This document shows positions 7,746 to 50,965 of a DNA stretch of 64,000 bases, piece by piece (position 1 is the first letter of the stretch; each line of letters opens with the position of its first letter). A program made the translations under genes and the position numbers. The stretch comes from Torpedo marmorata. Lineage: Eukaryota. The stretch spans positions 180,172,001 through 180,236,000 of the forward strand of contig OZ360223.1 of assembly GCA_977017645.1 (NCBI GenBank). The letters are read 5' to 3'. The notes beneath the pieces are model-generated. The model was not told the origin of the DNA. It was given only the letters and a program-made list of their open reading frames with translations, and did no database searches.

Positions 7746-8519
7746 GTATATGAATGAAATATTCAAATAAAATTAGCCAACTAACCTTCACTTAAGCAGG
7801 TGATGCACATATATCCATCAGAGGAGAATTAATTGCACAGCCAGAGGTAAACAAGAGAGGATGGAGACTGACCTAAGCTGATTAGTGGGGAAGTTGAGTT
7901 AAGATGGAGGATCATGCTTATTGACGGCCAACACAATCTTGATGGACTGCATGACTGCCTTCTTTTTCTATTTCTTATGTTCTATTTCTTATGTTTCTTT
8001 TGTTCTACTAAATGTTTAAACTTCAGTTTAAATTTTTACTTGCATAATAAGCAAATGGCATAGAAAGACACTTCCTTTAAGATTGTTTAAATCAATGAAG
8101 GACATTGAATAAACGTACATTCCACAAATAAAATGGTCCTTCTTGCAGCGTCCCGAACATCATCAAGTTGTCCCTCAATGATTAACTTTACTGGCAGTCA
8201 CATTGCTCTTGATATGAGTATTTGGTCATCTTGAGGTTAACGAGCACGAGCTGTGAAGCTGCATTGGCTGTGAAGTGCTTCAGGGACATCGTGAAAGGTA
8301 TAATGGAGATACAAGGTTTTCATTTCATTGTTCTTCTTTTGCAATGTTGCTATTACATTCTTAAGCATGAAAGTTGGCCTTAAGAACCATTTGCAAACAA
8401 TGGAAAAAAAATTCTCACTAAGATACAGAACAGATCTGAGGATGCATTCTCAAATGAATGTTGCAGCTCAGCCTCCACTCTGAATTGTGCATGTCCAATT
8501 CAAATACCAAGAGCACATA

Positions 8520-10109
8520 CAGTGCCCTCCATAATGTTTGGGACAAAGACACTTTTTTCCTTTATTTGCCCCTGTGCTCCACAGTTTTAAATTTGTAATC
8601 AAACAATTCACATGTAATTAAAGTGCACATTACAGATTTTATTCAAGGTTATTTGTATATATTTTGGTTTTACCATGTAGAAATTATGGCACTTTTTATA
8701 CATAGCCCCCTCATTTTAGGGCACCATAATGTTTGGGACATTTGGCTTCACAGGTGTTTGTGAGTACTCAGGTATGTTTAATTGCTTCTTTGGTGCAGGT
8801 ATAAGAGAGCTAGGCTTGCTTCTAAGCTTTTGATCACCTTTGGAGTCTGTAGCTGCTATTTTTCCAACATGAGGACCAGAGTTGTGCCAATGAAAATTAA
8901 AGAAGCTATTATGAGGCTGAAAAACGAGAATAAAACAGTAAGAGACATTTCCCAAACCTTAGGATTACCAAAATCAACAGTTTGGTAGAAAGAAGAAAGA
9001 GAGTACTGGTGAGCTCAGTAATCGCAAAGGGACTGGTATTTCAAGGAAGACCTCCACTGCTGGTGACTAAAGAATTCTCATCATAATGAAGAAAAATCCC
9101 TAAACATATGTCGGACAGATCAGAAACACACTTCAGGAGGCAGATGTGGATAAATCAGCTGTCCACAGAAGACTTCATGAAAAGAAATACAGAGGCTACA
9201 CTGCAAGATGCAAACCACTCGCTAGCCACAGAAAGGATGGCCAGATTACAGTTTCCAAGAAGTATTTAAAAGAGCCTGCAGAATTCCGGAAAAAGGTCTT
9301 GTGGACAGATGAGACCAAGATTAACCTGCATCAGAGTGATGGCAAGAGCAAAATGTAGAGGTGAAAAGGAACTGCCCAAGATCCAAAGCATACCACCTTT
9401 GCCATGGTTTGCATCTTGCAATGTAGCGTCTGTATTTATGTTCATGAAGTCTTCTGCAGACAGTAGTCATTGACATATCCACACCTGCCTCCTGAAGTGT
9501 GTTTCTTATCTGTCGGACATACGTTCTGGGACTTTTCTTCATTATGATGAGAATTCTTCTATCATCAGCAGTGGAGGTTTCCTTGAAAAACCAGTCCCTT
9601 TGCGATTACTGAGCTCACCAGTACACTCTTTCTTCTTAATAATGTTCCAAACTGTTGATTTTGGTAATCCTAAGATGAGGGCAGTCTCTTACTGTTTTAT
9701 TCTTATTTTTCACGCTCATAATGGCTTCTTTGACTTTCATTGGCACAACTCTGGTCCTCATGTTGAAAAATGGCAACTACAGACTCCACAGGTGATCAAA
9801 AGCTTAGAAGCAAGCCTAGCTCTGTTATACCTGCACCGATGAAGCAATTAAACATACCTGAGTACTCACAAACACCTGTGAAGCCAAATGTCCCAAACAT
9901 TATGGTGCCCTGAAATAAGGGGGCTATGTATAAAAAGTGCTGTAATTTATACATGGTCAAACCAAAATGTATACAAATAACCTTGAATAAAATCTGTAAT
10001 GTGCACTTTAATTACATGTGAATTGTTTGATTACAAATTTAAAACTGTGGAGCACAGGGGCAAATAAAGGAAAAAAGTGTCCTTGTCATAAACATTATTG
10101 TGGGCACTG
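8520..10109. mobile_element. Tc1/mariner fold-back derivative (two head-to-head left halves, truncated transposase)
   Basis: TA|CAGTGCCCTCC...GGGCACTG ends. Arms ~8520-9217 and ~9405-10109 are inverted copies. Transposase fragments VRDISQTLGLPKSTVW and ARCKPL...KVLWTDETKINL. Confidence 0.9.
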
Positions 10110-10111
10110 TG

Positions 10112-24411: not shown

Positions 24412-25825
24412 AAAAGCTTTGATATTAACGCGTCTGCGTATATTTTTTTTCATTTTGACTGATAGTGGGAAGGAGACATGAATCTATTGCGCATGTGCTT
24501 ATATTATATATCTCTATAGCAAACTTTTTTTTCTCACTTTGGTTAGATTCTTTTATAGAATTTTTTTCTTTGTTTGGGAAAATTTATTAATTATTCTTTT
24601 TTTTTAAATAAGGAGCTATATTAAGATTCTTCAGTAGAAGTGTGTAGGGTTAAAATGTATTTTTTTGAGCTGGTTACTGCTTGGTTTTGCAACCTTCAGA
24701 GCTGGGATGTTTGGGGGGGAGGGTTTTTGTTTGAGATTTTACTGGATTTGCAAGGTTATTTTGTTTTCATGGTTTATACATGCTGTGTTACAGTGTGGAT
24801 TCAAGGTGACGGCTCTTGGAATGGTGACAGACAGAGTTGGATTATTTTCATAATATTAATTAAGACACATGATTAACCCAATCAGACTTATCTCGTGGAA
24901 TGTTAAAGGTATGAACGGTCCAGTTAAACGCCGTAGGGTATTTGCTCATGTCAGACATTTAAAGGTTAATATTGTTTTTCTTCAATAAACCTATATCAGG
25001 AATTGTGATAAGGATAGGCTCATGTCTAAATGGAAAGGACAATGTTTTCATTCTTCTTCTGATGCTAAAGTCAGGAGAGTTTCTGTTTTAATTAACCAGA
25101 ACATTCCTTTTGTACTTCATAACACCTTATCAGACAAACATGGTCGTTATATTATTCTTACAGGTAAATTATATAATAAAATGGTTGTTTTTGCTAATAT
25201 ATACGCCGTAATTTTTTGAAAGATTTTTCTCAGCCCTACCTGACTTAAGTCAATACTCACTGGTATTGGGGGGGGATTTTAATTGTTGGCTAAATACTGT
25301 TTTAGATCGTTCTTCTTCTAAACCTGCTATTCTAAGTAAATCTGCAGCTGTAATTCATTATTTTTTAACAAATTTTGGTATTTCAGATGTTTGCCGTTTT
25401 TTATATCCTAATAGCAGAGAATTTTTTTTTCTAATGTGCATCGTACCTACTCTCGGATTGATTATTTTTTAATAGACAATCAATTGATTTCATTGACCAA
25501 ATCATGTGAATATCAAGAAATAGTGATATCTGATCATGCTCCTGTTATTTTGTCTTTGAATTTTCCTGACATTCCTTTTACAATGAGGCATTGGTGTTTT
25601 AATTCTACCTTACTCTCAGATAATGACTTTTTGAATTTTATGGAAGAGCAAATTCAGTTTTTCTTCATTACAAATTCTTCTCCATCAGTTTCTAACGTGA
25701 TTGCCTGGGATACTATGAAAGCATATTTTTGAGGGCAAATTATTTCTTATACAGCTAATATAAAGCAGAAGACCAACAAGGAAAGATTAGATATAATAAA
25801 TCAGATTAAACAAATTGATTTACAG

Positions 25826-26089
25826 TATAGTGACTTCAATCCAACAAATAGTCACTTGGAGGCTAGGTGAGATACTTGTTCTTGACGCTTTTCAATTAAT
25901 TTACTAACAAGTCCAATAGGTTCAAAACTTTATTTACACACGTTGACTTGTAGCAATCTTACTCCCGCGCATGCGCAGAGTACTAAATAAGCCCAGCACA
26001 TCCTACTAATCTCCGTGTCTCCTCCGAAACCTGCTGAGACCATCGGAACGCCGCGATTTAGGTAAGTAACCAAGCCTACGGCTCTTACA
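25826..26089 (-). repeat. BEL/Pao 3' LTR (264 bp, internally deleted)
   Basis: Matches both ends of 36361-36871 but lacks ~247 bp of its middle. Confidence 0.9.
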
Positions 26090-26977
26090 CCGGCCCCTAA
26101 TTATTATAATTAGACGCAATGTCTAAAATAATAATTACACAATCAATTACAAATAACAATAACCATATAACAGTCAAACAATATACAATTCTTCTTTCTT
26201 CACAAGACCATAGTTTACCATAACTCTGAATCAATAAAAGTCTGTAACCTGTGTAGTATACAACAATAAAATAAAGTCAGTTTGTATTTATCAAAGTTCT
26301 TTTATCTCCAGAATCATTGAGTTAGAATTTCGACCAGTAAACTTCAAGTCTTCCTCAGACAAAATAGATACAGTTTTTCTTTTGAATTTAACACGAGATA
26401 CTTCTTCAGCATGTCGTTCCACTTTATTCCTTTTTCAGCATTCTACTTCTCATGTGAAGAATTTAAACTCTTAGAACTAGAATTTGAATATTTATCTGAT
26501 CCTCTCGATTTTAATAAACGAGTCTCTTTAACCACTCTGGTTTCTATTGCCTTTTCCTGCAATTCCAAATCCAATTTTGCAACTTTCAATTCAGTCTCAG
26601 TTCTTTCCGAGAAATTAATAACTTTTTATTTTTTTATTTTTTTTAAATATTTTATTTTAAGATTTTCAATTTTTCACAATAATACAAAATAATGTAAAAT
26701 ATACATTAAACATCAGTTAAGTTCAATACATAGGAGTTTCGTATTACCATGAATCTAACCCCATCTAAACCCACCCTTACTAAAACAACCCACCCTCCAC
26801 CCTTCCCGTCCCTTACCCCCTCCCCACACTAGAACTAAAAAAGAAAAGAGAAGGGAAAAGCACAATTGAAAATATATCTATACACATCCATGGCTCGATG
26901 TAAGAGATTCAGCAATGTTCATTCTTCAAATTTAAACTTAGGAGAGTCAGCGGGGTCTGGGATGCAGGGCAACATAT

Positions 26978-29900
26978 TTAAATATTCATTCCTGATAATT
27001 GGATAAATGGACGCCAAATTTGTAAAAAGAGTCCATACTTATTCCTCATATTGTATGTTATTTTTTCCAATGGTATGCAACTCTGCATCTCTGAATTCCA
27101 TCTACTCATACTCAGATTTGTGTCCGATTTCCAGGTCACTGCTATACACTTCCTAGCTACTGCTAGTGCAATTTTCACGAATTTTAATTGCCATATGGAT
27201 AATTTCAATTTTGGTCTAGTTCCCTCTATATTCCCCAATAAGAACAAGTCAGGGTTTTGAGGAAATGCAACACCTGTAACTAGTTTCAACCGGTTTCCTA
27301 ACTCTGCCCAAAAATCTTTAACTTTTGAACATGACCACGTTGAGTGTAAGAATGTTCCTTCTTCTTCTCCACATCTAAAACATCTATTTGGTATTGCAGA
27401 GTTCATCTTGTTCAGTTTTTGTGGTGTGAAGTATATTTGGTGTAAGAAGTTATATTGTACAAGTCTGTATCTTACATTAACAGTATTAGTCATACTATCT
27501 AGGCATAGATCTGACCATCTTTTTTCATCAATTATAATATTAAGATCTTGTTCCCATCTTTGTCTGGACTTATGAAGTCCTCGTTTTTGAGCTCCCTTCT
27601 GTAACAAAGAATATACTATGGAAGTAAATTTCTTAATGTTTCCTTTCCTAATAATAGTTTCTACCTCGCTGCATTCTTGTAACAACATGTCTGGACCTAA
27701 TTTTCCTCTTAAGTAAGCTGTTAGTTGTAGATAGCAAAAAAATGTATTTCTAGGTATTCCATATTTATTCTGTAATTGTATGAATGACATCACTTGATTT
27801 CCTTCGTAACAATCTTCTATTTTCTTTATTCCTTTTAATGACCATGTATTTAAAAAAGGGTTATCTTTTGTAAATGGTATCAGATTGTTCTGTATCAGTG
27901 GCATTTTAGGTGATACATTTCCTTTTAATCCTATATCGTCATTAACCTTATTCCAAGCATTAATCAAATGTTTTAATAGCGGTGTTTCTTTAACACCTGT
28001 CAACAGTTTTGAGTTCCATTTATATATAAATTCTTGTGACTTCTTCTCTCCTATTTCTCCAAGCTCTATTCCAACCCACGCAGGTCTTTCTTCAGATTCA
28101 AAAAAAGAAGCAATAAAACGCATCTGTGCCGCTCTATAGTAGTTCTTAAAATTAGGGAGTTGTAAACCTCCCAGCTCATATTTCCATGTTAAACGTTCCA
28201 TCGAAACTCTTGACATTTTTCCTTTCCATAAAAACTTTCGCACCTGTTTATTTAAGTCTTGAAAAAATACCTGTGGTAGTGAAATAGGTATAGTCTGATA
28301 CAAGTACTGTATCCTTGGAAATATATTCATCTTAATACAATTAACTCTTCCTATCAATGTGATTGGCAGATTAATCCATTTCTCTAGATCCTCCTTAATC
28401 TTATTAAGCAATGGTATATAATTCCACTTGTATAAATTCTTTAATTTATTATCTGTCCGGACCCCTAGGTATTTTATTCCATTATGTGGCCATTTAAACT
28501 GGGTACTTCTCTTGCATACAGCGTAATCTCCTTCCGTAAGAGGCATAACTTCACTTTTATCCCAATTTATCTTATATCCAGAAACTTTTCCATATTCCTC
28601 CAACTTAAGATGTAGTTTTTGCAAAGAGGTCTCAGGTTCGGTCAAGTATATTAATACGTCATCCGCGAATAGACTTATTTTATGTCGCTCTTGACCAACT
28701 GTAAATCCTTTGATTTCCACATCACTTCTAATCACTTCTGCCAACGGTTCTATCGCTAGTACAAATAAAGCTGGTGACAATGGGCACCCTTGCCGACTAG
28801 ATCTTGTTAAGTAAAAGGGGGTTGATAATTGTCCATTTGTCACTACTTTGGCTTTTGGGGCATTATATAACGCTTTAATCCAATCTATGTACGTCTTCCC
28901 AAACCCGAATTTTTCCAAAACTTTAAATAAAAAGTCCCACTCTAACCTATCGAAAGCTTTTTCTGCATCCAGTGCCACTGCTACACTTCGTACTTTCCTT
29001 TTTTGAGCTAAATACATGATACTGAGTAGTCTTGCTACGTTATCTGCTGCTTGTCTTTTTTTTATGAAGCCTGTTTGGTCCATATTTACTAACTTTGGCA
29101 GAAAATTTGTTATCCTATTTGCCAGGATCTTTGCTACAATTTTATAATCTGTGTTCAGTAGTGAAATTGGTCTATAGGACGAGGGTTTCAATGGATCTCT
29201 ATCTTTTTTTGGTATTACTGTAATTATTGCAGTTGAGAAGGACTCTGGAAGTGTATGGGTCACTGACGCTTGTTGTAACATATCCATAAAAATGGGAGTC
29301 AATAATTCTTTGAATTCTTTATAAAACTCTGGTGGAAAACCATCTTCTCCCGGTGCTTTGTTACTTTGTAGTGCGCTAATTGCATCCTTTACTTCCCTTT
29401 GTGTAATCTGTGTGCTTAAATCTAGACGCTCTTGTACATTTAATGTTGGCAAGTTTATCTGAGATAAATAATTATCAATTTTTCTATCATCTTGTAATGA
29501 TTCTGATTTGTATAGATCAGAATAGAACTTCCTAAAAGAATCATTTATTGTTTGGGGTTTATAACTAATGACATCGGACTCTGTTTTAATTGCATTGATT
29601 GTTCTAGATGCCTGCTCTGTTTTTAATTGCCATGCTAATACTTTATGTGCACGTTCGCCTAGCTCATAGTATCTTTGTTTAGTTCTTATAATGGTTTTTT
29701 CCGTTCTATAAGTCTGTAACATATTATACTGTAACTTTTTATTAGTTAATTGCCTACTTTTATCTGTAGAACTCCTCTTTTGCAAGTCTTTTTCTAAAAT
29801 CGTTATCTCTTTTTCTAATTTATCTATTTCTTTCATATAGTCTTTTTTAATCTTTGAAGAGTAGCTTATAATTTGACCTCTTAAAAATACTTTTAAAGTT

Positions 29901-30758
29901 TCCCATATTACAAATTTATCAGTCACTGAATTTAGATTTGTTTCACAAAATATCTGAATTTGTCTCTTTATAAAATCACAAAAGTCTGTTCTTTTTAATA
30001 ACATAGGGTTTAGTCTCCATCTATATATCGATTTCTCTTTATCAGGTACCGTCACTGTCATCAGTAAAGGAGAATGATCAGACAGGATTCTAGCCTTATA
30101 ATCTATTTCCAAAATTCTATCTTGTATTTGAGCTGAGGTTAAAAATAAATCGATTCTAGAATAAGTATCATGTCTAGTAGAATAAAATGAGAAATCTTTA
30201 TCTCTCGGGTGGATTCTCCTCCACGCGTCAATCAAATTTAGATCCTTCATTAACACCAACGTGGCTTTTGCTGCTTTAGTTCTCCTTCCTCCTCTTGTAG
30301 ATTTGTCCAGCCCCGGATCTAAACAAAAGTTGAAGTCTCCCCCAATTATGATATTTTCATGCGCTTCCGCTATATTGAGAAAGGTCTCTTGAATAAATTT
30401 ATCATCGTCTATATTAGGAGCATATATATTCAAAAGTGTCCAAAATTCAGAGAATATCTGGCAGTTAATCATTACATATCTTCCTGCGGGGTCCGATACA
30501 ACACTTTGTATCTTAATTGGAAGATTCTTTTTTATTAAAATTGCCACACCCCTTGCCTTGCTGTTAAATGAAGATGCCCTTACATATCCCACCCAGTCTC
30601 TTTTTAATTTCAAATGTTCCTTCTCTGTTAAATGTGTCTCTTGTAAAAAAAGCTACATCCACACCCAGTTTTTTAATATACGCTAGAACTCTTTTCCTTT
30701 TAATTGGTCCATTTATCCCATTAATGTTAAAATTCAGGAATCTCAATATGTTACTCAT
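26978..30758 (-). CDS. L1 ORF2p (APE endonuclease + reverse transcriptase + Cys-rich domain); single +1 frameshift at 30645-30651
   Basis: MSNILRFLNFNINGIN...VAF/LQETHL, GGDFN, SRID, SDHSP, LDAEKAFDR, RQGCPLSP, FADD, CFRC..H..W.C; 1211 aa uninterrupted after the T7 run. Confidence 0.95.
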
Positions 30759-31203
30759 TTTTAATTATGTTTCGTTCCTATTGATGTCACCCCCTTCATC
30801 CCAGACCCCCCTCTCACCCTCCATAATTACTTTCTTCAATCTCCATCGAGCCAACATATAGTCCTTACAGTGATATATGCAGTTACTATAATAAAAATAT
30901 ACAGTTACTAAGTACATTCCCTTCTCCCTGTAAAAAAGAAAACATGCTCTAACTATAACCCCACTAGCGCTGCTAATATATACAGCGCTACCCCCCTCTA
31001 TTTTACGGGCCGCGGCCTTAGCCGCGGAAGTACACATGATTATAGCAGAAGTCAGGAACTCACCCTCCTCTCCCCGACCCCCCTGATATCACACTTTTAA
31101 CATAAACCATTCTTTATCATTAAGATTTCCAAGCTATAGGTTGTAAACTGATGTATTTTTTTTTACCAATATATACTAGAAAAAAGAAAAACACATTCAT
31201 CTT

Positions 31204-32313
31204 TCAACGTTCCTCTCTAATCGGTGGCAGCTCATTGGCAAATTCCTCTGCTAAAACATAGTTTGTAAAGAATTTGTTTTGCTGGTCCGGTATAAAGATC
31301 TTCAAGGTCGCTGGGTGTCGCAGCACAAATTTATACCCCTTCTCCCACAAAGTCTTTTTAGCTGTATTGAATTCTTTCCTCCTTTTCATCAAGTCGGCGC
31401 TTATGTCTGGGTAAAAAAGAACTTTGGCTGCTTTATATATCAAGGGACCTCCTCTCTGTCTTGCTGCCTCCATTGCGGTCTGTAAAATTCGCTCCCTGTC
31501 TTGGTATCTTAAAAACTTGACTAATATAGAACGTGGGTATTGATCTTGTGCTGGCCTTGCTCTTAAAGCCCTGTGGGCTCTTTCGATCTCAATTTCACGC
31601 TCAAACTTATCCGCGCCTAGCACGTCCGGTAGCCAAGTCTTCATGAAAGCGATCATGTCTTGTCCTTCCTCACCTTCTTTAAGACCAACGATCTTTATGT
31701 TATTTCTTCTACTAAAATTTTCCATTATGTCCATTTGCTGTTTGAGTTTTTTATTTTCCATCTCTAAAACAGTGTAATTATTTTCCAATGCCTCCACTCT
31801 TCCTTCAGTATTTTCCACTTCTGTTTTTATTTTCTTAACTTTATATTCAATCTTCTTTACTTTTAACTTCAAGTCTTTCATATCATCAATTACCTTTTTC
31901 ACATAGTTCATATCTTCCTTTAATTCCCTAACTGTTGTTAGTATAGCTGCAGTTGTTGACAGTTCCCCTTTAAATAGTTGCTGTGACGTCTCCGGCGGTT
32001 GTTGTTGTAGCGCTTCGGCCTCCAGCTGATCGTCCTCGTCTTCCGAATCGGAGCCACTCGTGCCTTCCTGGTCTGAGGTCGTTGTTGCCGGCTTTTCGCG
32101 CACGCGCGTAACAGGCCCGATTTCCCTGCCGGCGCCATGTTCTTGGCGTCGGGAGGGATCAATGCCTGTCGCCGTACCCATCAACGGAGCCTCCTCCTGG
32201 GGCTCTGTTCGCACTTCAGCTCCCTGCTGCCGAGGCCTCTTCTCTGTCGAGGTCTTCTCTTTCCGTTGGAGCCCAGGTAAGTCCTTTGTTGTTTTTTCTT
32301 TTTTCGGAGGCAT
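31204..32313 (-). CDS. L1 ORF1p (coiled coil + RRM + CTD), 369 aa, intact
   Basis: ENFSRRNNIKIVGLKEG, IERAHR, PRSILVKF, FYPDIS...RRKEF, PATLKI motifs. Confidence 0.95.
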   Translation of the reverse strand: MPPKKEKTTKDLPGLQRKEKTSTEKRPRQQGAEVRTEPQEEAPLMGTATGIDPSRRQEHGAGREIGPVTRVREKPATTTSDQEGTSGSDSEDEDDQLEAEALQQQPPETSQQLFKGELSTTAAILTTVRELKEDMNYVKKVIDDMKDLKLKVKKIEYKVKKIKTEVENTEGRVEALENNYTVLEMENKKLKQQMDIMENFSRRNNIKIVGLKEGEEGQDMIAFMKTWLPDVLGADKFEREIEIERAHRALRARPAQDQYPRSILVKFLRYQDRERILQTAMEAARQRGGPLIYKAAKVLFYPDISADLMKRRKEFNTAKKTLWEKGYKFVLRHPATLKIFIPDQQNKFFTNYVLAEEFANELPPIREER

Positions 32314-32526
32314 TTTTTTCTTTTCTTTTTAAAAGGTTAAAGCCCTTTTAAAGTGGTTTTTAGCTTACAAAAAGCGTTTTTTTTTTCACTTTTTTTAAAG
32401 TTCTCAGAGAGGTCGGGTTTCCACGACCTGACCCTACTCCATCACGTGACGTCCCCCCGAGAAATTAATAACTTGATCTGAAATGAAAATATCATGTGAT
32501 TCATTGGTACTTCTATTGTCAATCCT

Positions 32527-32835
32527 GCTGTGGTAAACTTGTAATTTTTTAATTTCTTCATCTTGCTTGTTACATTTCTGCAATGCAATATCACTTTATT
32601 TCTGCATTGTTAGTAGCTGAACCTTCAATTTACATTTTTGATTGTTTTCTATAATCAACTGTTTTGTGTTATTAACCAATAACTTGTTCTCTTTCAAAAT
32701 ATTAATCTCTTCCTCCAACCTTTTACATTTTGATAATGCTGAATCTCTTTCCTCAATAACTGTATTTATTTCTTCAGCAGTTATTCTTTTCTTCCGCTTT
32801 CTGACATTGCAAATTTTATTTACAATTAAATCTTT
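32527..32835 (-). pseudogene. MIPOL1: Intron-less MIPOL1-like coiled-coil segment inside the BEL element
   Basis: LIVNKICNVRKRKKRITAEEINTVIEERDSALSKCKRLEEE...ENNQKCKLKVQLLTMQK*SDIALQKCNKQDEEIKKLQVYHS aligns by eye with the recalled vertebrate MIPOL1 sequence. Confidence 0.75.
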
Positions 32836-33196
32836 CTGTTTACTGTTTTCATGATTATCCAATATTTCCAATTCCCCTTTCAACATTTTGTTCTCTGAAT
32901 TCAATTGCATTAAATTATCATTCACATTCTTCTTTATTCCATCAGCACAATTTTTTGTGTTCTCCAGTTTTACATCACATTGCGACATTTCTTCATTGAC
33001 TTTGTCTGCTGCAACCTCTGAACTACAAAATCTTCTTTCAAATTTGTTCTCAGTCACTTGCTTTATTCCTGCCTCTGATTCAATTACACAGGAATAATCA
33101 CTAGTATTATTTGCAACATCTTTTAATACTTCATTTTCATCCATTTCTGATGAAAATAATTCCTTCAATGTTGTTTTAATTACCTTTGATTTATTT

Positions 33197-35714
33197 TCAC
33201 ATTGATCTGTTTTCTTCAAAAGTGACTTTCTTATTCACAAACTTTTGCTCTTCCCTTAACTCATCAACTTTCACAACTGAAATCCTGTTAACATTTATCA
33301 CTAACTCTTCCTGTGCAATATCATTATTTCTTTCCAATGGTCCATTGATTGTCCAACCAAGCTTGGTTCCAACAGCGTAAGGTCCATTCCCTCCACTCCG
33401 TATTACTTCCAGTGGTTCCAAGACCTTTGGCACATCTGAACCAATCAGCATTTCTATCTCAGAGTTAACTTCAGGTAGATAAACTTTCCACAGATAAAGA
33501 CAAATGGTGGAAATCATTTTGATGTGGAATGTTTCCTTCGTGCACCAGCATAGTCTTCTGAGTATATAAACTTGGAAGATCACAAAATTTTTGTCATCCA
33601 ATCCAGCAACCTCTAAGCCTGAAACAATGCTGGTTTCAACGACCTTTTCTTGTCCTATGGTTTTCAACATAATTCTTGACCTTCCTTGAATATTAAGTTT
33701 GTTCATTAGTCCTTCCATGCAAAAAGATGCAGTGCTGCCTGGGTCAAGAAATGCATATGTATGTACTGTTGCATCCCTTTTCTTGGTCTTGACTTGTACA
33801 GGCACTATTGAAAGATTGCAGTTATCCACACTTGCCCCAGTAAGACCATTTGTCTGAACCGAGGTTATAACATTGTTTTCTGTTGTTTCATTTGTTTCTG
33901 TTTGCTCCTTTTCAAATTCCTTCTTTCTTTGATAGATATGCAACATTCTAGGATGGTTCAAATTGCATATGTTACAGTTAATTCGCTTCTCGCAGTTTTT
34001 ACTGATGTGCCCTTTACACAGACAGCTAAAACATACTCCATTTTCCTTTAAGAAAGCGATCTTCTCATTATGTTCCTTCTTTTCCAAATGTAAACACATT
34101 TCCAAAGCATGTCCACCTTTACAGAACAAACAACTCTTCTCATTAGTCAAACTTTCCTTTTCCTTATTTACTTTATCTTTTTCTTTATTTATAACTGACA
34201 CATTAGTAGCAAAAGTACTTCTTTTCAATTTTGGACTAGGCTGTGAGTTAAACCTCCGTACATCTTTGTTCCCCATTGAATTGTCTTTGGTATTTCCATA
34301 TATTGGATCTGTTTCAATGTAGACCTGTTGTTCGACTGTAATTTTCTTGTAAATCACAAGCCAAATTTCTCCATCTATCCCACAACTTGTAAGGTAATTT
34401 TTCTAAGATGATTTGCATATTACCAGGCACTTCAAGCTCACGAATATTATCGATATCTTCCATGGCATTACAACATCCTCTTAAAAATAGAGTATATGCT
34501 TGTAGAGCTTTTACATCATTCTGTTTTATTGATGTCCATTTAAGAGCTTTATCCATGTAAGCTAAAGCAATTCGATGCTTGTTGTAAAAAAGTTGTTCTA
34601 GTAAAGCCTTAGCTCTGTCTAATCCTCTTTCTGAGGACAAATGTTGACAAATCTTTACAAGTTTTCTTGGATGTCCTTTTGTGAACATTTCCTAATAATA
34701 AAGACATTCATCAGGGTCTTGGCATTTATTTTCAATATTGCGTTTGAAAGATCTCATGAACGCTTGGTACTGAAGTGGATCACTATCAAAAGTTTGTATC
34801 TCTTTCTTGGGTAAAGAAGAGAGAGACTGTAACTGAATCAATGATGCAGCAATTTCATTTTGTCTTCCCATGGATGACAATACATTGCTCTGTTCACCAC
34901 CTCTTGTTACAGGTAATGTATCTGGAAACCTCACTTGTGTAGTTTCTCCCATATTTCTGATGCTTGACTCAAATGCCAAGGGAGCTGCATCGTTTGACCG
35001 AACCCAAGCCGCAGCTTTATCTTCAGATGTTACCACTGGTACATGTGACTCGATAACACTATGCTCTTGAAGGATTTGTCCTTGTATTTTCAAGTCTTGT
35101 ACCCTTGGTACTAAAATATCTACCCTTTCGGTTGGTTTCTTTTCCTGTGATTCTTTTTTAAAATATGACTTTTTATCATCGCACACTTTAGATAATTTAA
35201 TCCGAGCACCAGATACCATTGAGCCTTCTAGTACCTCTTTGTTTGCTTCCAGCTCCTGCTGCTCCTTTCTCTGCCTTAGCTGCTCCTTCTCTTGCCTTAG
35301 CTGCTCCTTGTTCTGCCTTAGCTACTGCCTTAGCTGCTCCTTTCGCTGCTCCTCCTTTTGCCTTAGCTGCTCCTCCTGTCATTCTAAAATATGTTTATCC
35401 TTAAGCGTTTTTTGTTGCGCAAGAGTGGCCAAGTCAACTTCAACCTTTGCATGTGACGATGCAGAACTTGAAGTACGAGAAACTCTGAAGCTCGAATCAG
35501 AACTTTGTTTGCTTCTCCTGCTTTCAGCATTTGAGACACTGTCACATGATTGTATTTCATCCTGCAGGTCAGATGTTGTCTTCTTACTTACCTCTTTCTC
35601 CAATCCGAATTGTACATCCTTTGCATCTTCATCCTCTTCGTTTTCTTCATCATTTGGTGACACAATTGCAGCCATTTCCACCCTGCTGTCTTCTTGTTCA
35701 TCAAACGAAGCCAC
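33197..35714 (-). pseudogene. BEL/Pao gag-protease, decayed (several stops and frameshifts)
   Basis: SLPKKEIQTFDSDPLQYQAFMRSF, KLPYKLWDRWR, CLFCKGGHALEMC, CFSCLCKGHISKNC, CNICNLNHPRMLH, LSIVPVQVK..TYAFLDPGSTASF, GPYAVGTKLGWTING. Confidence 0.9.
35250..35378 (-). repeat. ~21-bp coding minisatellite in BEL gag (EQLRQxK heptads)
   Basis: Repeated GAGCAGCTAAGGCA units on the minus strand. Confidence 0.8.
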
Positions 35715-35900
35715 CTCTTCTTCCTTTGCCAGCTTCAGTCTTGCGATGAGAACCTTTTTATTTCAACTTATATCTAGTTTCAGTCGCTTCAATTCTTCTT
35801 TAATATCCACAACCTTCATGTCTTCAATATGTTGGTCCTCAACAGAAACATCAGCGGTTTCTGCGTCAGCTACTGCTGCATCAGCGGGTGCTGCGGCCAT
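35715..35900 (-). pseudogene. SLTM/SAFB-like N-terminal SAP domain fused in frame to BEL gag
   Basis: MAAAPADAAVADAETADVSVEDQHIEDMKVVDIKEELKRLKLDIS*NKKVLIARLKLAKEEE fits the SAP consensus; the stop sits at the conserved Gly. Confidence 0.75.
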
Positions 35901-36360
35901 TTTACTCGTCTTGTTCCACTGTCCTTCGAGAATACACGACATTAGCCAAATCAACAGTCCCCAATGGACGAGCAGCAGCAAATCCAATCTGTGTTCAAAC
36001 TTGCCAAAAATACACAGAAGGAGTCCACAGACTTATGCCTACCACTTCAGATGACTGTAATGTGCTGCTATTCACAATCGAGTTTCCACCACAACATCCG
36101 TCAATAATATCGCTGATTTTCAAGATATGGTTTCTCCAACTTATTTATAGGACACTTTACTATAAGATTTGAAGCTCTAAATCCCTCTCTGGCTGTTATT
36201 CATGGCAGGTAGATGTGGATTACAAACTGCCCCTAACTCGAGGCATCTCCAAGATGGCTGCCATTTTATTTTTAAATATCAGTCCAAAGCACAGAGAGAG
36301 TATTCTATCTTCTTTCCTTCAATTTTCTGTTCCAAACAATAAGCTTTTATTGACTAAACA

Positions 36361-36871
36361 TACAGTGACTTCAATCCAACAAATAGCCACTTGGAGGCTA
36401 GGTGAGATACTTGTTCTTGACGCATTTCAATTAATTTACTAACAAGTCCAATAGGTTCAAAACTTTATTTACACACGATGACTTGTAGCAATCTTCAATG
36501 ACTTAAATATCTTCTTTAACGAAATATAAACAATTCTTGATAACGATGCTTAATAACGATTCTTCAAAACGTCTTTAAACTTCCTTTAAAACGATTCACC
36601 CTCTTCTAAGTCGCCATATTCTTATACTACTTCTTCTCCGATTCGCGCATGCTCCCACGCGCATACTCCACCGCGCCTACTGCACACACTTCCCCACTGC
36701 GCATGATCCAGCCACTTGCCCACTGTGCATGCGCCCGTCGGCACTCCCACGCATGCGCAGAGTACTAAATAGGCCAAGCACGGCCTACTAATCTCCGTGT
36801 CTCCTCCGAAACCCGCTGAGACCATAGGAACGCCGCGATTAAGGTAAGTAACCAAGCCTACACCTCTTACA
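36361..36871 (-). repeat. BEL/Pao 5' LTR (511 bp)
   Basis: Paired with 25826-26089; GC-rich segment with repeated GCGCATGC motifs. Confidence 0.9.
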
Positions 36872-39229
36872 TACAGTATACACAAGTTAAAAACCCTGAT
36901 TTATATAAAAGGAGAGTTGAACTTAAAACTAAATTTGATCTTCTTTCTACTTATCCCATTGTAGAGCAACTTTTGAGGAGCAAGAGTCAGTTCTACATCC
37001 ATAGTGAAAAATCCGGTAAGCTTTTGGCCAGTCAATTGAAAAGTATGGCTGCTAAGAGACAAATTAATAAGATTCGGATGGAAGATGGTACGGATACTAC
37101 TGACCATTCTAAAATAAGTGATACCTTCAGAGAATTTTATTCCAGATTGTGCACTTCTGAATCTAATAATGAAAATACTTCAATGATGGACTTTTTGGAC
37201 CGCCTTAATTTGCCTATGCTTTCTTAGAATAAACGTATGAGTCTGGAGGCTCCTATTTCTCAAGAGGAAATACTTTTTTACAATCTGGTAAATCTCCAGG
37301 ACCTGATGGGTACCCTGTGTAATTTTATAAATCCTTTTCTAAATTGCTTGTGCCCCAATTGAGTTCTGTGCTTAATGACTCATTTAAACAAGGGAATCTT
37401 CCATCATCTTTTAATGAAGCTTGTATTTCTCTTATTCTGAAAAAGGGGATCCATTTGAATGTGCTTCTTATAGGCCTATCTCTTTACTCAATGTAGATAT
37501 GAAGATTTTGTCTAAAATATTGGCCCATAGATTGGAGAATATTTTACCATCAATCATTTCTGAAGATCAAACTGTTTTTATTAAAACTGTTATTCTTATT
37601 TTAATATACACCGTTTATTGAATATTTTATATTTACCTCCCACTCCTGTCCCTGAATGTGTTCTTTCTCTCGATGCAGAGACGGCTTTCGATCGGGTGGA
37701 ATGGGGGTATCTATTTGCGACTTTGGAAAAATGTAATTTTGGACCACGTTTTATTAAATGGATTAAATTATTATATTTATGTCCTACTGCGTCAATTCTT
37801 ACTAATTTACAGCAATCAAAACCTTTTAATCTTCAACAGGGTACTCGTCAAGGCTGTCCTTTAATCCATTACTTTTTGACTTGGTATTAGAACCTCTAGC
37901 AATTGCTCTTCGTGAATGTAGAGATTTTATAGGGATCCATAGGAACAGCATTGAACACAAGGTTTCCTTATATGCAGATGATCTTTTGCTTTTTGTATCT
38001 AATCCAGATGTTTCTTTACAAAGCATATTAGCTTTGCTAACTCATATTAGTCTGTTTCTGGGTATAAGTTGAATCTGCATAAAAGTGAACTTTTACCTTT
38101 AAATGGTTCTATACCAAGATATTCTATTTTTCGTTTTAAGATTGTGAAGGATCAATTTACCTATCTCGGTATTACAATTACTTTTTAAGGAAAGTTTTTC
38201 TAATTTATTTAATCAGGTTAAATTATTGTTATCGAGATGGTCACCTTTATCTATTTCCATGATTGGTCGTATCAATTCTATTAAAATGAACATTTTACCT
38301 AAATTTTTGTATCTTTTCCAATCTATACCAATTTTCATTCCCAAATCTTTTTTTGATTCACTTATTTCGCTTATATCTTCCTACATATGGAAAGGAAAAC
38401 ACCCTCGCTTAAATAAAGCTCATCTTGAAAAAGCTAAAAGGAATGGTGGATTGGCTTTTCCTAATTTTAGATTTTATTATTGGGCGGTCAATATATGTAA
38501 TTTGATTCTTTTGCTATATTTTGATAATCTAGTTGACCGCTCTTCATGGGTAGAAATAGAACTGAATTTTACTAAGAATACTTCCATGTTGGCAATTCTT
38601 GGGTCCTTTTTATCTTCTTCTTTATATAAACTAACTGATAATCTGATAACTAAACATAGTTTGAGAATATGGGCAAAAGTTAGAAGGTTTTTTGGATTTC
38701 AGAGTTTTTCTCTTGCTAGCCCTATTATATCTAATCACCTTTTCCAACCTTCTTTGCAAGATACCGCCTTAAATGTTTCAGACCTTTTTATTCGTATAAT
38801 TTTGCTTCTTTTGAACAATTGGTGGTAAAATTTAACTTACCAAACACTCATTTTTTTAGATATTTACAAGTTAGACATTTTGTTCAATCTCAGATCCCTC
38901 ACTTTCCGCGAATCCCCGAAGCAAACATCCTTGATACACTTTTTGATTTACAACTTTCTCATAAAGGCTTAATATCTCTTATTTATAATAATTTGCTTGA
39001 TTTAAGAATAGCCTCGTTAGTTAAAATCAAGAATGATGAGGTTTGGGACTCCATTTGTAATTTGATTAATACTACCTCCCTTTGTGCATGACACTGTTTG
39101 TTGCAATTTAAAGTGGTCCATAGAGTACATATGTCTAAAGTTAAATTGTCTCGTTTTTATTCAGATATAAATCCTCTATGTGACAAATGTAAAATTGGTG
39201 AGGCTTCTTTGGTTCACATGTTCTGGACT

Positions 39230-48254: not shown

Positions 48255-48590
48255 ATGATGTAGAAAGGTTGTTTCCCATGGTGGGAGTCTTGGACAAGAG
48301 GGCACAACTTCTGGATTGAAGGGCTTCTGCTTAGATCAGAGATGTGGAGGAATGTTTTCAGCCAGAGAGTAGTAAATCTGTGGAATTTTTTTACCACAGG
48401 CAGTTGTGGAGGCCAGGTCATTGGGTGTATTTAAGGCAGAGATTGAAAGGTTCTCGATTAACCAGGGCATCAAAGGTTATGGCGAGAAAACCGGGCAGTG
48501 GGGCTGAGTGGGAATATGGCTAAACTCATGATTAAATCGCGGGGCAGTCACGATGGGCTGAATAGCCTATTACTGCTCCTATGTCTTATA
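48255..48590 (+). mobile_element. CR1 LINE 3' fragment
   Basis: TRGH, FSQRVVNLWN motifs and 3' UTR; same family as 49095-53345. Confidence 0.8.
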
Positions 48591-50299
48591 GTCATAAATG
48601 AAGTTTCATTGGTTGTGGAAATTGTTCCATCTAATTACAAACAAGTTTATGAACAGATTTTGGACTCCTTGTTTTTACAGCCATAATATGCTTTGGGTTT
48701 GTTCATTGCCAGAAAGGGTTTAAGTTTCAGCAAAAAAAATGAGTAGCTTCTGAAGGCTCATCCTCATTGAGCAGTTTTTTTTGGAAAATCACAGATAAAC
48801 AGCCTGCAGTTCATACGATAGCAATAACGCAGTGGATTATGAGATAATAGTGTAAATCGGGCAATCTTTGAAGGATGATTCCCGAAGTACTTGGATTTTG
48901 AGTTTCATATACATTAGTCTGCAAGCTCTTGCATATTGCTTCTACCTGCACAAATGGGATTAATGCTCCACTCAATTTAGCTTGCTTGTGACTATCAGCA
49001 ATGTTAATAGTTCAATAACATCCAGCACACTTCATATCAAACCAGACCACCTTTATCTGATCCACAAAATGGATGGTTTAAATGTGGTTATACATAAGAC
49101 CAGAAGATGTAGGAGCAGAAATACGCTTTCAGCCCATTGAGTCTGCCCGCCATTTAATCATGAGCTGATCCATTTCCCCACTCAGCCCCACTGCCCAGCC
49201 TCTTCCCTATAACCTTTGATGCCCTGGCTAATCAAGAACCTATCAATCTCTGCCTTAAATACACCCAGTGACCTGGCCTCCACAACTGCCTGTGGCAACA
49301 AATTCCACAGATTTACCACCCTCTGGCTGAAGAAATTCCTCTGCACCTCTCTTCTAAGCGGACGCCCTTAAATCCTGAAGTTGTGCCCTCTTGTCCTAGA
49401 GTCTAGACTCTCCCACCATGGGAAAGAACCTTTCTGCATCTACTCTGTCCATGCCTTTCGACATTTGAAATGCTTCAATGAGATCCCCCCTCATTCTCCT
49501 AAATTCCAATGAGTACAGGCCAAGAACTGCCAAAAGCTCCTTATATGATAACCCTTTCATTTCCCAGAATCATGCTTGTGAACCTACTCTGAACCCTCTC
49601 CAACTTCAGAACATCCTTTCTTAAATGAAGAGCCCAAAACTGTTCACAATACTCCAAGTGAGGTCTCACCAGTGCTTTACGGAGCCTCAACATCACATCC
49701 CTGCTCTTGTATTCTATTCCTCTTGAAATTAATGCCAGCATTGCATTTGCCTTCTTCACCACTGACTCAAAATGCAAGTTTACCTTCAGGGTATCCTGCA
49801 CGAGGACTCCTAGGTCCCTTTGCATCTGGGTATTTTAAATTTTCTCCCCACTTAAAAAATACTCTCCTCGTTTGTTTTTTCTGCCAAAGTACACTTTCTG
49901 ACAGTGTATTTCATTTGTCACTTCTCTGCCCATTTTAGTAATCTAAGTCCTTCTGCAGCCTCTCTGTTTCTTAACACGACCTGCTCCTCCACCTACCTTC
50001 ATATCATCTGCAAACTCGGCCACAAAGTCATTCATTCCATAATCCAAATCATTAATAATAGACAACATATAAAGAAGCAGCCCCAACACTGACCCCTGTG
50101 GAACACCACTAGCAATTGGTAGCCAACCAGAATATTATCCCTGTATTTCGACTGCTTCCTGCCAATCAGCCAATGCTCTATCCACGCAAGTATGTTTCCT
50201 GTTATACCATGGGCTCCTATATTGTTCAGTAGCCCCGTGCGGCACCTTGTCAAATGCCTTCTGAAAATCCAAATACACAACATCCACTGCAACTCCCTT

Positions 50300-50965
50300 T
50301 GTAAGAGCCATAGGCTCACTACATACCCTATGTTTTGGCCGCGGGCGCCGGCGGTGTTCCGGGGCCCGTGGGCCTCTTCCATTAGGCTGCACGTGCGAGT
50401 GCCGCCACCGCTTGCGGAGCTGGAGGGTGGCGGCGCTCGCGTGGTTGGCTCAGCGGCGGCTTCGGCCAGGGCCGGCGTATCCATCAGTGCACATGCGCAC
50501 TGATGGACTGGGTCGACGCGTGCGCGGTTGTCTCGGCCCCGGCGGCGAGCGGTTGGAGCCGGGGCCAGCGCGTGTACTACGGAGCATGCGCAGGTGGGAC
50601 CTGCGCGTTTAAATGGAGGTTCCCCCGCGCGAGTCGACAGTTGAAAACCTGAGGAGGGTGAGTTAGATGTCGACAATCTCTGTCGACCGTTTAATACTTT
50701 TGGAACTCGTTTAATACTTTTGGAACTCGTTTAATACTTTTGGAACACTTTTTATAAACTTTTTACATTGTTTTAGATCCTTTTACATTATTTTACATCA
50801 TTTCAAGAAATGTTTATATTAAAGTCTGAAGATTACTGCAAGTCTAATGTAAATAAAGGTTTTTTGAACATTTTGGACTTTGTTGGTAAATGAATGAAAA
50901 CGCGTCGCAGACAAACACCTAACTTAGCCTCCAAGCGACTATTTTTATTGGATGAAGTCGCTACA
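50300..50965 (+). mobile_element. BEL/Pao solo LTR (666 bp), related to the LTRs of 25826-36871
   Basis: TGTAAGAG...GAAGTCGCTACA; 5-bp TSD CCCTT (50295-50299, 50966-50970); shared terminal TAGCCTCCAAG(C/T)GACTATT; internal 20-bp x3 tandem. Confidence 0.9.

Follow-up and report, generated by a model that had tools for sequence, protein, structure and literature searches.

A BEL/Pao-derived LTR element of Torpedo marmorata with a SAP domain at the start of Gag and a MIPOL1-like reading frame apparently in place of pol

LTR elements are known to capture genes, and the captured sequence is usually described as passenger cargo. Passages of Tan et al. 2016 (PMC5131818) describe LTR elements with internal ORFs replaced by partial mRNAs via template switches, including multi-gene chimeras, a BEL example (the mosquito BEL18_AG) and re-transposition of the products as non-autonomous elements; these passages describe no gag fusion of the kind reported here. 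The extra ORFs of rotifer LTR elements are downstream ORF3s according to passages of PMC5408684. SAP has been found as an accessory domain in mobile elements, namely in Zisupton and in Chlamys-1_pPol, which excerpts of PMC8557442 present as a DNA transposon and a Penelope-like element, respectively, neither of them carrying the domain in an LTR gag as here. Searches of the open-access literature gave no account of a BEL gag with a SAP domain, nor of an LTR element with MIPOL1, and the terms "N-terminal", "additional domain" and "shark" are absent from a BEL/Pao survey (PMC3118150).

The window analyzed here, a stretch of 64,000 nucleotides, contains on its minus strand a BEL-derived element (25826-36871) recognized by paired LTRs and a 5-bp target duplication. 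The homology matches indicate a vertebrate host, and the SINE-like repeats would suit a cartilaginous fish. In its gag core, zinc knuckles and protease the element is 35-58% identical to the BEL/Pao elements of teleosts (Belpaoviridae; for example those of Merluccius, Pimephales and Notolabrus), with which it also shares an LTR starting with TGT and the 5-bp target duplication, but it lacks their three-helix N-terminus, RT, RNase H and integrase. Like the LTR retrocopies in the passages of PMC5131818, it appears to hold partial host mRNA from several genes between two LTRs and is non-autonomous; unlike them, it has two separate replaced regions with gag-pro kept in between, and one of the inserts adds a domain in frame to Gag together with the start codon. 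Rather than travelling as cargo, the apparently captured piece takes the place, in frame, of a conserved domain of Gag and gives the protein its start codon, and a second host-like piece has replaced pol. The chimera itself is real and unusual; capture of this sort is a known route, the donor a candidate and the function hypothetical.

The features of the element are all on the minus strand. The 5' LTR (36361-36871, 511 bp) starts with TGT and, when set against a related solo LTR, deviates at its end from the usual CA, while alignment of the LTRs gives the 3' LTR (25826-26089) a 247-bp internal deletion. Comparison of the flanks identifies the target-site duplication, CTGTA on the minus strand, at 36872-36876 on the 5' side and at 25821-25825 on the 3' side. 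The LTR ends were fixed with the solo LTR (50300-50965, plus strand), a member of a related family with a GC-rich interior that is 75% identical to the element LTR over ~150 bp at its 3' end and has a 5-bp duplication of its own, CCCTT. Both element LTRs end with TA (36361-36362 and 25826-25827), and the solo LTR ends with CA. A leader of 460 nt (35901-36360) lies between the 5' LTR and the ATG; no primer-binding site was obvious by eye after the 5' LTR, and a G-rich tract (26090-26098) directly precedes the 3' LTR in the position of a polypurine tract.

The insertion target was an older L1 ORF2 on the plus strand (25500-25825 and 36872-39091), which is interrupted by the element and resumes across it, from ...KQIDLQ to YTQVKNP.... 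Because this ORF2 spans the whole element and there is one 5-bp duplication, we rejected a reading of the 5' repeat as a solo LTR. The two LTRs and the clean 5-bp target duplication mean that the chimera integrated as one unit. A later L1-type insertion (26625-32456, minus strand, recognized by Pfam and sequence), with ORF1 at 31204-32328 and ORF2 at 26978-30652, is flanked by an 18-bp target duplication (32457-32474, the same as 26607-26624); it is near full-length, with a 1224-codon open ORF2 stretch, and looks younger than the BEL element. The 1224-aa ORF was considered as the element's pol or env and rejected, as it is ORF2 of the inserted L1. Three layers are nested at the locus: L1, the BEL derivative and L1. 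Elsewhere in the window, long inverted-repeat pairs at 8519-10110 and 48285-49403 are probably non-autonomous DNA transposons. The two LTRs of the element have 14 differences in 264 aligned bases, which corresponds to ~2.65% change per copy since insertion, and the copy has decayed in that time through stops, frameshifts, the LTR deletion and the L1 insertion.

The initial annotation, which gave no strand, placed the start codon of Gag at 35900 and read it in frame with the downstream gag, and the sequence bears this out. The ATG (35900-35898, minus strand) is present in the context GTAAAATGGCC, and its frame runs without a frameshift through an Ala-rich leader (codons 1-24, 35829-35900, identified by translation), the SAP codons (35715-35828) and an acidic linker (35577-35714) into DEIQSCDSVSN...LKDKHILE. 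The frame spans 528 codons, with stops at codons 46 (35763-35765), 174 (35379-35381), 193 (35322-35324) and 403 (34692-34694), the first in the SAP domain and the others in gag; gag has a frameshift near 34330. Frame, homologues and profile place the gag at 34329-35642, and it is followed by the zinc knuckles and an aspartic protease (33242-34336, by profile and tblastn), of which 33504-33602 matches in another frame; Asp_protease_2 of Pfam matches the protease region weakly (E 0.11). When the best 7998 candidates were scored, the downstream Gag yielded 48 matches with 32-55% identity, most of them with BEL Pfam domains, the named ones being teleost proteins and one amphipod protein. The N-terminal 200 aa as query gave 7 matches, all BEL gag.

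The same annotation held that a SAP domain supplies the start codon and N-terminus of this Gag, and here too the profile evidence is in agreement. Pfam SAP (PF02037) matches with 31.0 bits (E 1.9e-7) for a 73 aa query and 33.2 bits (E 3.7e-8) for a 40 aa query, compared with a gathering cut-off of 23.9 bits; the matched residues 25-56 correspond to 35828-35733 of the window. By sequence, PDB entries that match at E ≤ 10 are all SAP domains, those of MKL1 (E 0.001) and hnRNPUL1 (E 0.95). GC content at third positions is not clearly higher in the SAP segment than in gag, so composition gives no sign of foreign origin.

In teleost BEL gags (residues 19-126 of P0051, and its relatives) the N-terminus forms a common three-helix domain, for which the Pfam scan gave no family. 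A fold model predicts three long helices with pLDDT > 90, and a PDB fold search with the native gag N-terminus produced nothing at E ≤ 0.001, only generic helical bundles. Of 55 relatives, 49 have a shared anchor motif in the first 300 residues and 43 of these have at least 100 residues before the anchor (12 were dropped). A profile of the native domain matches all 43 members at 83-182 bits, and nine members left out in turn still score 82-175 bits; the N-terminus in the window scores −0.1 bits, a value reached by 140 of 200 shuffled sequences. The BEL profile match starts near 35642, within the acidic linker, and the switch from SAP to BEL falls between about 35715 and 35642. Since the relatives carry the native domain and the window does not, we conclude from these comparisons that the SAP segment took its place in frame. 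In a tree of the gag core the window falls in a clade with 25 of 48 relatives (99/98) on a long terminal branch (0.67); the native domain is present also in relatives outside this clade, which indicates that the swap to SAP is derived.

A second region is replaced further downstream. Of the 2037 positions in a profile built from 41 BEL relatives, only 127-904 find a match (at 35642-33242), and no RT, RNase H or integrase was found beyond the protease with this profile or by tblastn with six named proteins. With a BEL-type gag and protease, two LTRs and a short target duplication, the element classifies by sequence as a BEL/Pao derivative and not as an autonomous member. The place of RT, RNase H and integrase is occupied by a predicted coiled-coil ORF (32475-33231, stop at 32596-32598) likened to MIPOL1 by ESM Atlas. 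Its 211-aa open frame (32599-33231) is nearest to MIPOL1 clusters, with a score of 0.96 (shuffled proteins reach 0.95 once in 100) and 179 of 256 features, although this is a feature score with no alignment and the recognition value is low here (1646). MIPOL1 accounts for 11 of the 30 ESM Atlas matches, and all are chordate. The ORF has no Pfam match, and PDB gives nothing useful; it also has motifs that may be MIPOL1-like. In this copy the ORF is not in the frame of the protease. The whole of 32475-33231 is 45% A and 29% GC, with one stop in 252 codons. A continuation of 60 codons lies beyond the L1 insertion (26446-26625, minus strand, by reading frame) and has no match in ESM Atlas or Pfam; it may correspond to a part of MIPOL1 nearer the N-terminus, in which case the order would be shuffled. 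Pol is replaced by a putative MIPOL1-like coiled coil. With native N-terminus and pol both missing, the internal ORF is replaced and not interrupted, as in LTR retrocopies.

These results lead us to lean towards a non-autonomous BEL/Pao element that took up genes while it was being reverse-transcribed, a reading that we hold with moderate confidence. Gag has lost its three-helix N-terminus and gained an in-frame start codon, Ala-rich leader and SAP. Both swaps would have arisen when reverse transcriptase jumped to host mRNAs packaged alongside its own template, one mRNA contributing the 5' end of a gene with an N-terminal SAP, probably of the SAFB/SLTM family, and the other part of MIPOL1. The chimera, with two LTRs and a 5-bp duplication, integrated as a unit, probably with RT and integrase provided in trans by an autonomous BEL element, and then decayed by stops, frameshifts, LTR deletion and L1 insertion. 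The main role of the captured 5' end was probably to give Gag a new start, with DNA binding by SAP, if any, weak and incidental. Capture of mRNA is made likelier by the presence of a second host-like insert, the MIPOL1-like one, in the same element, and having two regions replaced is consistent with template switching that occurred repeatedly.

The proposal that a captured host 5' end could tether Gag to chromatin or bias integration survives in part. The SAP domain is real, brings the ATG, is non-native and replaces the native domain in frame; tethering and integration bias find no support in a dead copy that has no integrase. The SAP of this copy is not intact for DNA binding, as it has a stop at codon 46 and differs at the position of a folding residue of SAFB2. 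A suggested link to L1 RNA draws on the SAFB proteins, which besides binding L1 RNA have an RRM and ER-rich repeats according to passages of PMC10901741, but this link is weak here, where no RRM is found and where, in the DNA tests described in passages of PMC9958909, the SAFB2 SAP bound only double-stranded DNA.

It is possible, though we give it clearly less weight than incidental capture, that SAP-Gag was selected in a pol-less family, where it tethered Gag or mixed particles to chromatin and biased where the integrase of a helper inserts; this would be compatible with capture. A conserved domain was swapped in frame with the ATG kept, and the DNA-contacting Lys53 position is retained in the SAFB2 register. 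The stops fit decay after insertion: at 2.65% per copy, 1 stop is observed against 0.3 expected in the SAP segment, 3 against 1.9 in gag and 1 against 1.1 in the MIPOL1-like ORF, so the reading frames were probably open at insertion. If an identity of 61% to SLTM holds, most of the SAP divergence predates insertion. Drift to 65% identity would, on the other hand, leave at most one stop in the SAP segment with P = 0.34, so that the stop count there cannot tell selection from drift and does not show selection; for the MIPOL1-like ORF the same drift, if it applied to the divergence from the host gene, gives P = 0.003.

Precedent for such a role comes from the Gag tether of foamy virus (passages of PMC6282019) and from MLV p12 (passages of PMC6021111), which offer a model for a Gag-borne chromatin binder steering integration; both bind nucleosomes, as shown experimentally, with an integrase present, which this element lacks. 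Against selection stand the single copy, the lack of an integrase, the absence of a second SAP-bearing BEL in homology searches (with gag, the N-terminal 200 aa and SAP only), and the micromolar affinity and slight AT preference of the SAFB2 SAP in passages of PMC9958909. Much of the chromosome association of Drosophila SAF-B needs no SAP, according to passages of PMC2857882. Somewhat less probable again is that a pol-less BEL family kept both the SAFB/SLTM SAP, as a chromatin-binding Gag head, and the MIPOL1 coiled coil under selection; if true, a retroelement would be making use of a domain whose protein family acts in mammals as a repressor of retroelements. Should other copies show selection on SAP, this would be a natural case of a host-derived DNA-binding Gag head on a retrotransposon, with an insertion-site bias testable from genome data alone; with no selection on SAP, the element would be a clear fossil of double capture.

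As for the donor, the SLTM string of the initial annotation is identical to the SAP segment at 23 of 38 positions in a by-eye count; tool alignments counted in the same way give MKL1 15 of 38 and hnRNPUL1 13 of 34. The difference points to the SAFB family only provided that the SLTM string is correct. In a homology search with SAP only, none of 70 candidates reached E ≤ 10. An exhaustive search gave 16 unnamed matches, the best with several matching stretches at 28-35% identity and none 900-1050 aa long, the length expected of a full SAFB/SLTM protein, and a motif search in the literature for a SAP donor found 0 matches. SAFB1, SAFB2 and SLTM, as described in passages of PMC9958909 and PMC10901741, have like this Gag an N-terminal SAP. 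In the SAFB2 register, which likens the two by residue numbers with an offset set by hand, Val35, Asn52 and Lys53 match (3 of 9 positions) and the other six positions differ, including Ser31, Arg45 and Ser54; the element further differs by the stop in the loop. Loss of Arg45 unfolds the SAFB2 SAP (passages of PMC9958909). Pfam scans of the element's ORFs detected no RRM, so at most a fragment of SAFB/SLTM could have been captured.

The occurrence of SAP in Zisupton DNA transposons and in one Penelope-like family of Chlamys (excerpts of PMC8557442) makes it possible that SAP came from another transposable element and not from a host gene. The low identity and multiple matching stretches of the best exhaustive matches, and the failure of the SAP-only search to return a named host donor, would suit such an origin. 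We nonetheless consider it improbable, as the ATG and Ala-rich leader before SAP fit the N-terminal SAP of the SAFB family (passages of PMC10901741), the Chlamys SAP is internal (PMC8557442, same excerpts) and the second insert of the element is host-like.

Less probable still is that in this host group a BEL sub-lineage under-sampled in databases has long had SAP as one of its regular domains. Even the nearest relatives reach no more than 58% identity in the gag core, the terminal branch is long and scoring in the gag search was limited to the top 7998 candidates. The SAP of the window is, however, matched by none of the 55 relatives (best E 0.52), and no SAP was displayed when 33 of them were scanned with Pfam (four had a sixth family outside the display), so that in this sample SAP is not already widespread in BEL gags; such a lineage would, moreover, itself need an origin by capture. 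Finally, that the SAP match is a chance resemblance or a decayed native N-terminal helix is very improbable, because although the segment is short and helical and its single-sequence fold gives two long helices with a break at the loop and no SAP shape (pTM 0.47), the Pfam match exceeds the curated cut-off at E 3.7e-8, the best PDB matches are SAP domains and the segment is unlike the native BEL N-terminal domain.

An Rfam scan of the window and of the leader gave no match near the gathering score. Three of the window's eight AA[AG]ATGGC motifs fall in the leader and ATG context (35890-36360, minus strand), a count for a motif that was picked after seeing the sequence. The motif is YY1-like, and its presence in the leader may be a mark of a host-gene 5' end. 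Two of the leader motifs face each other near 36264.
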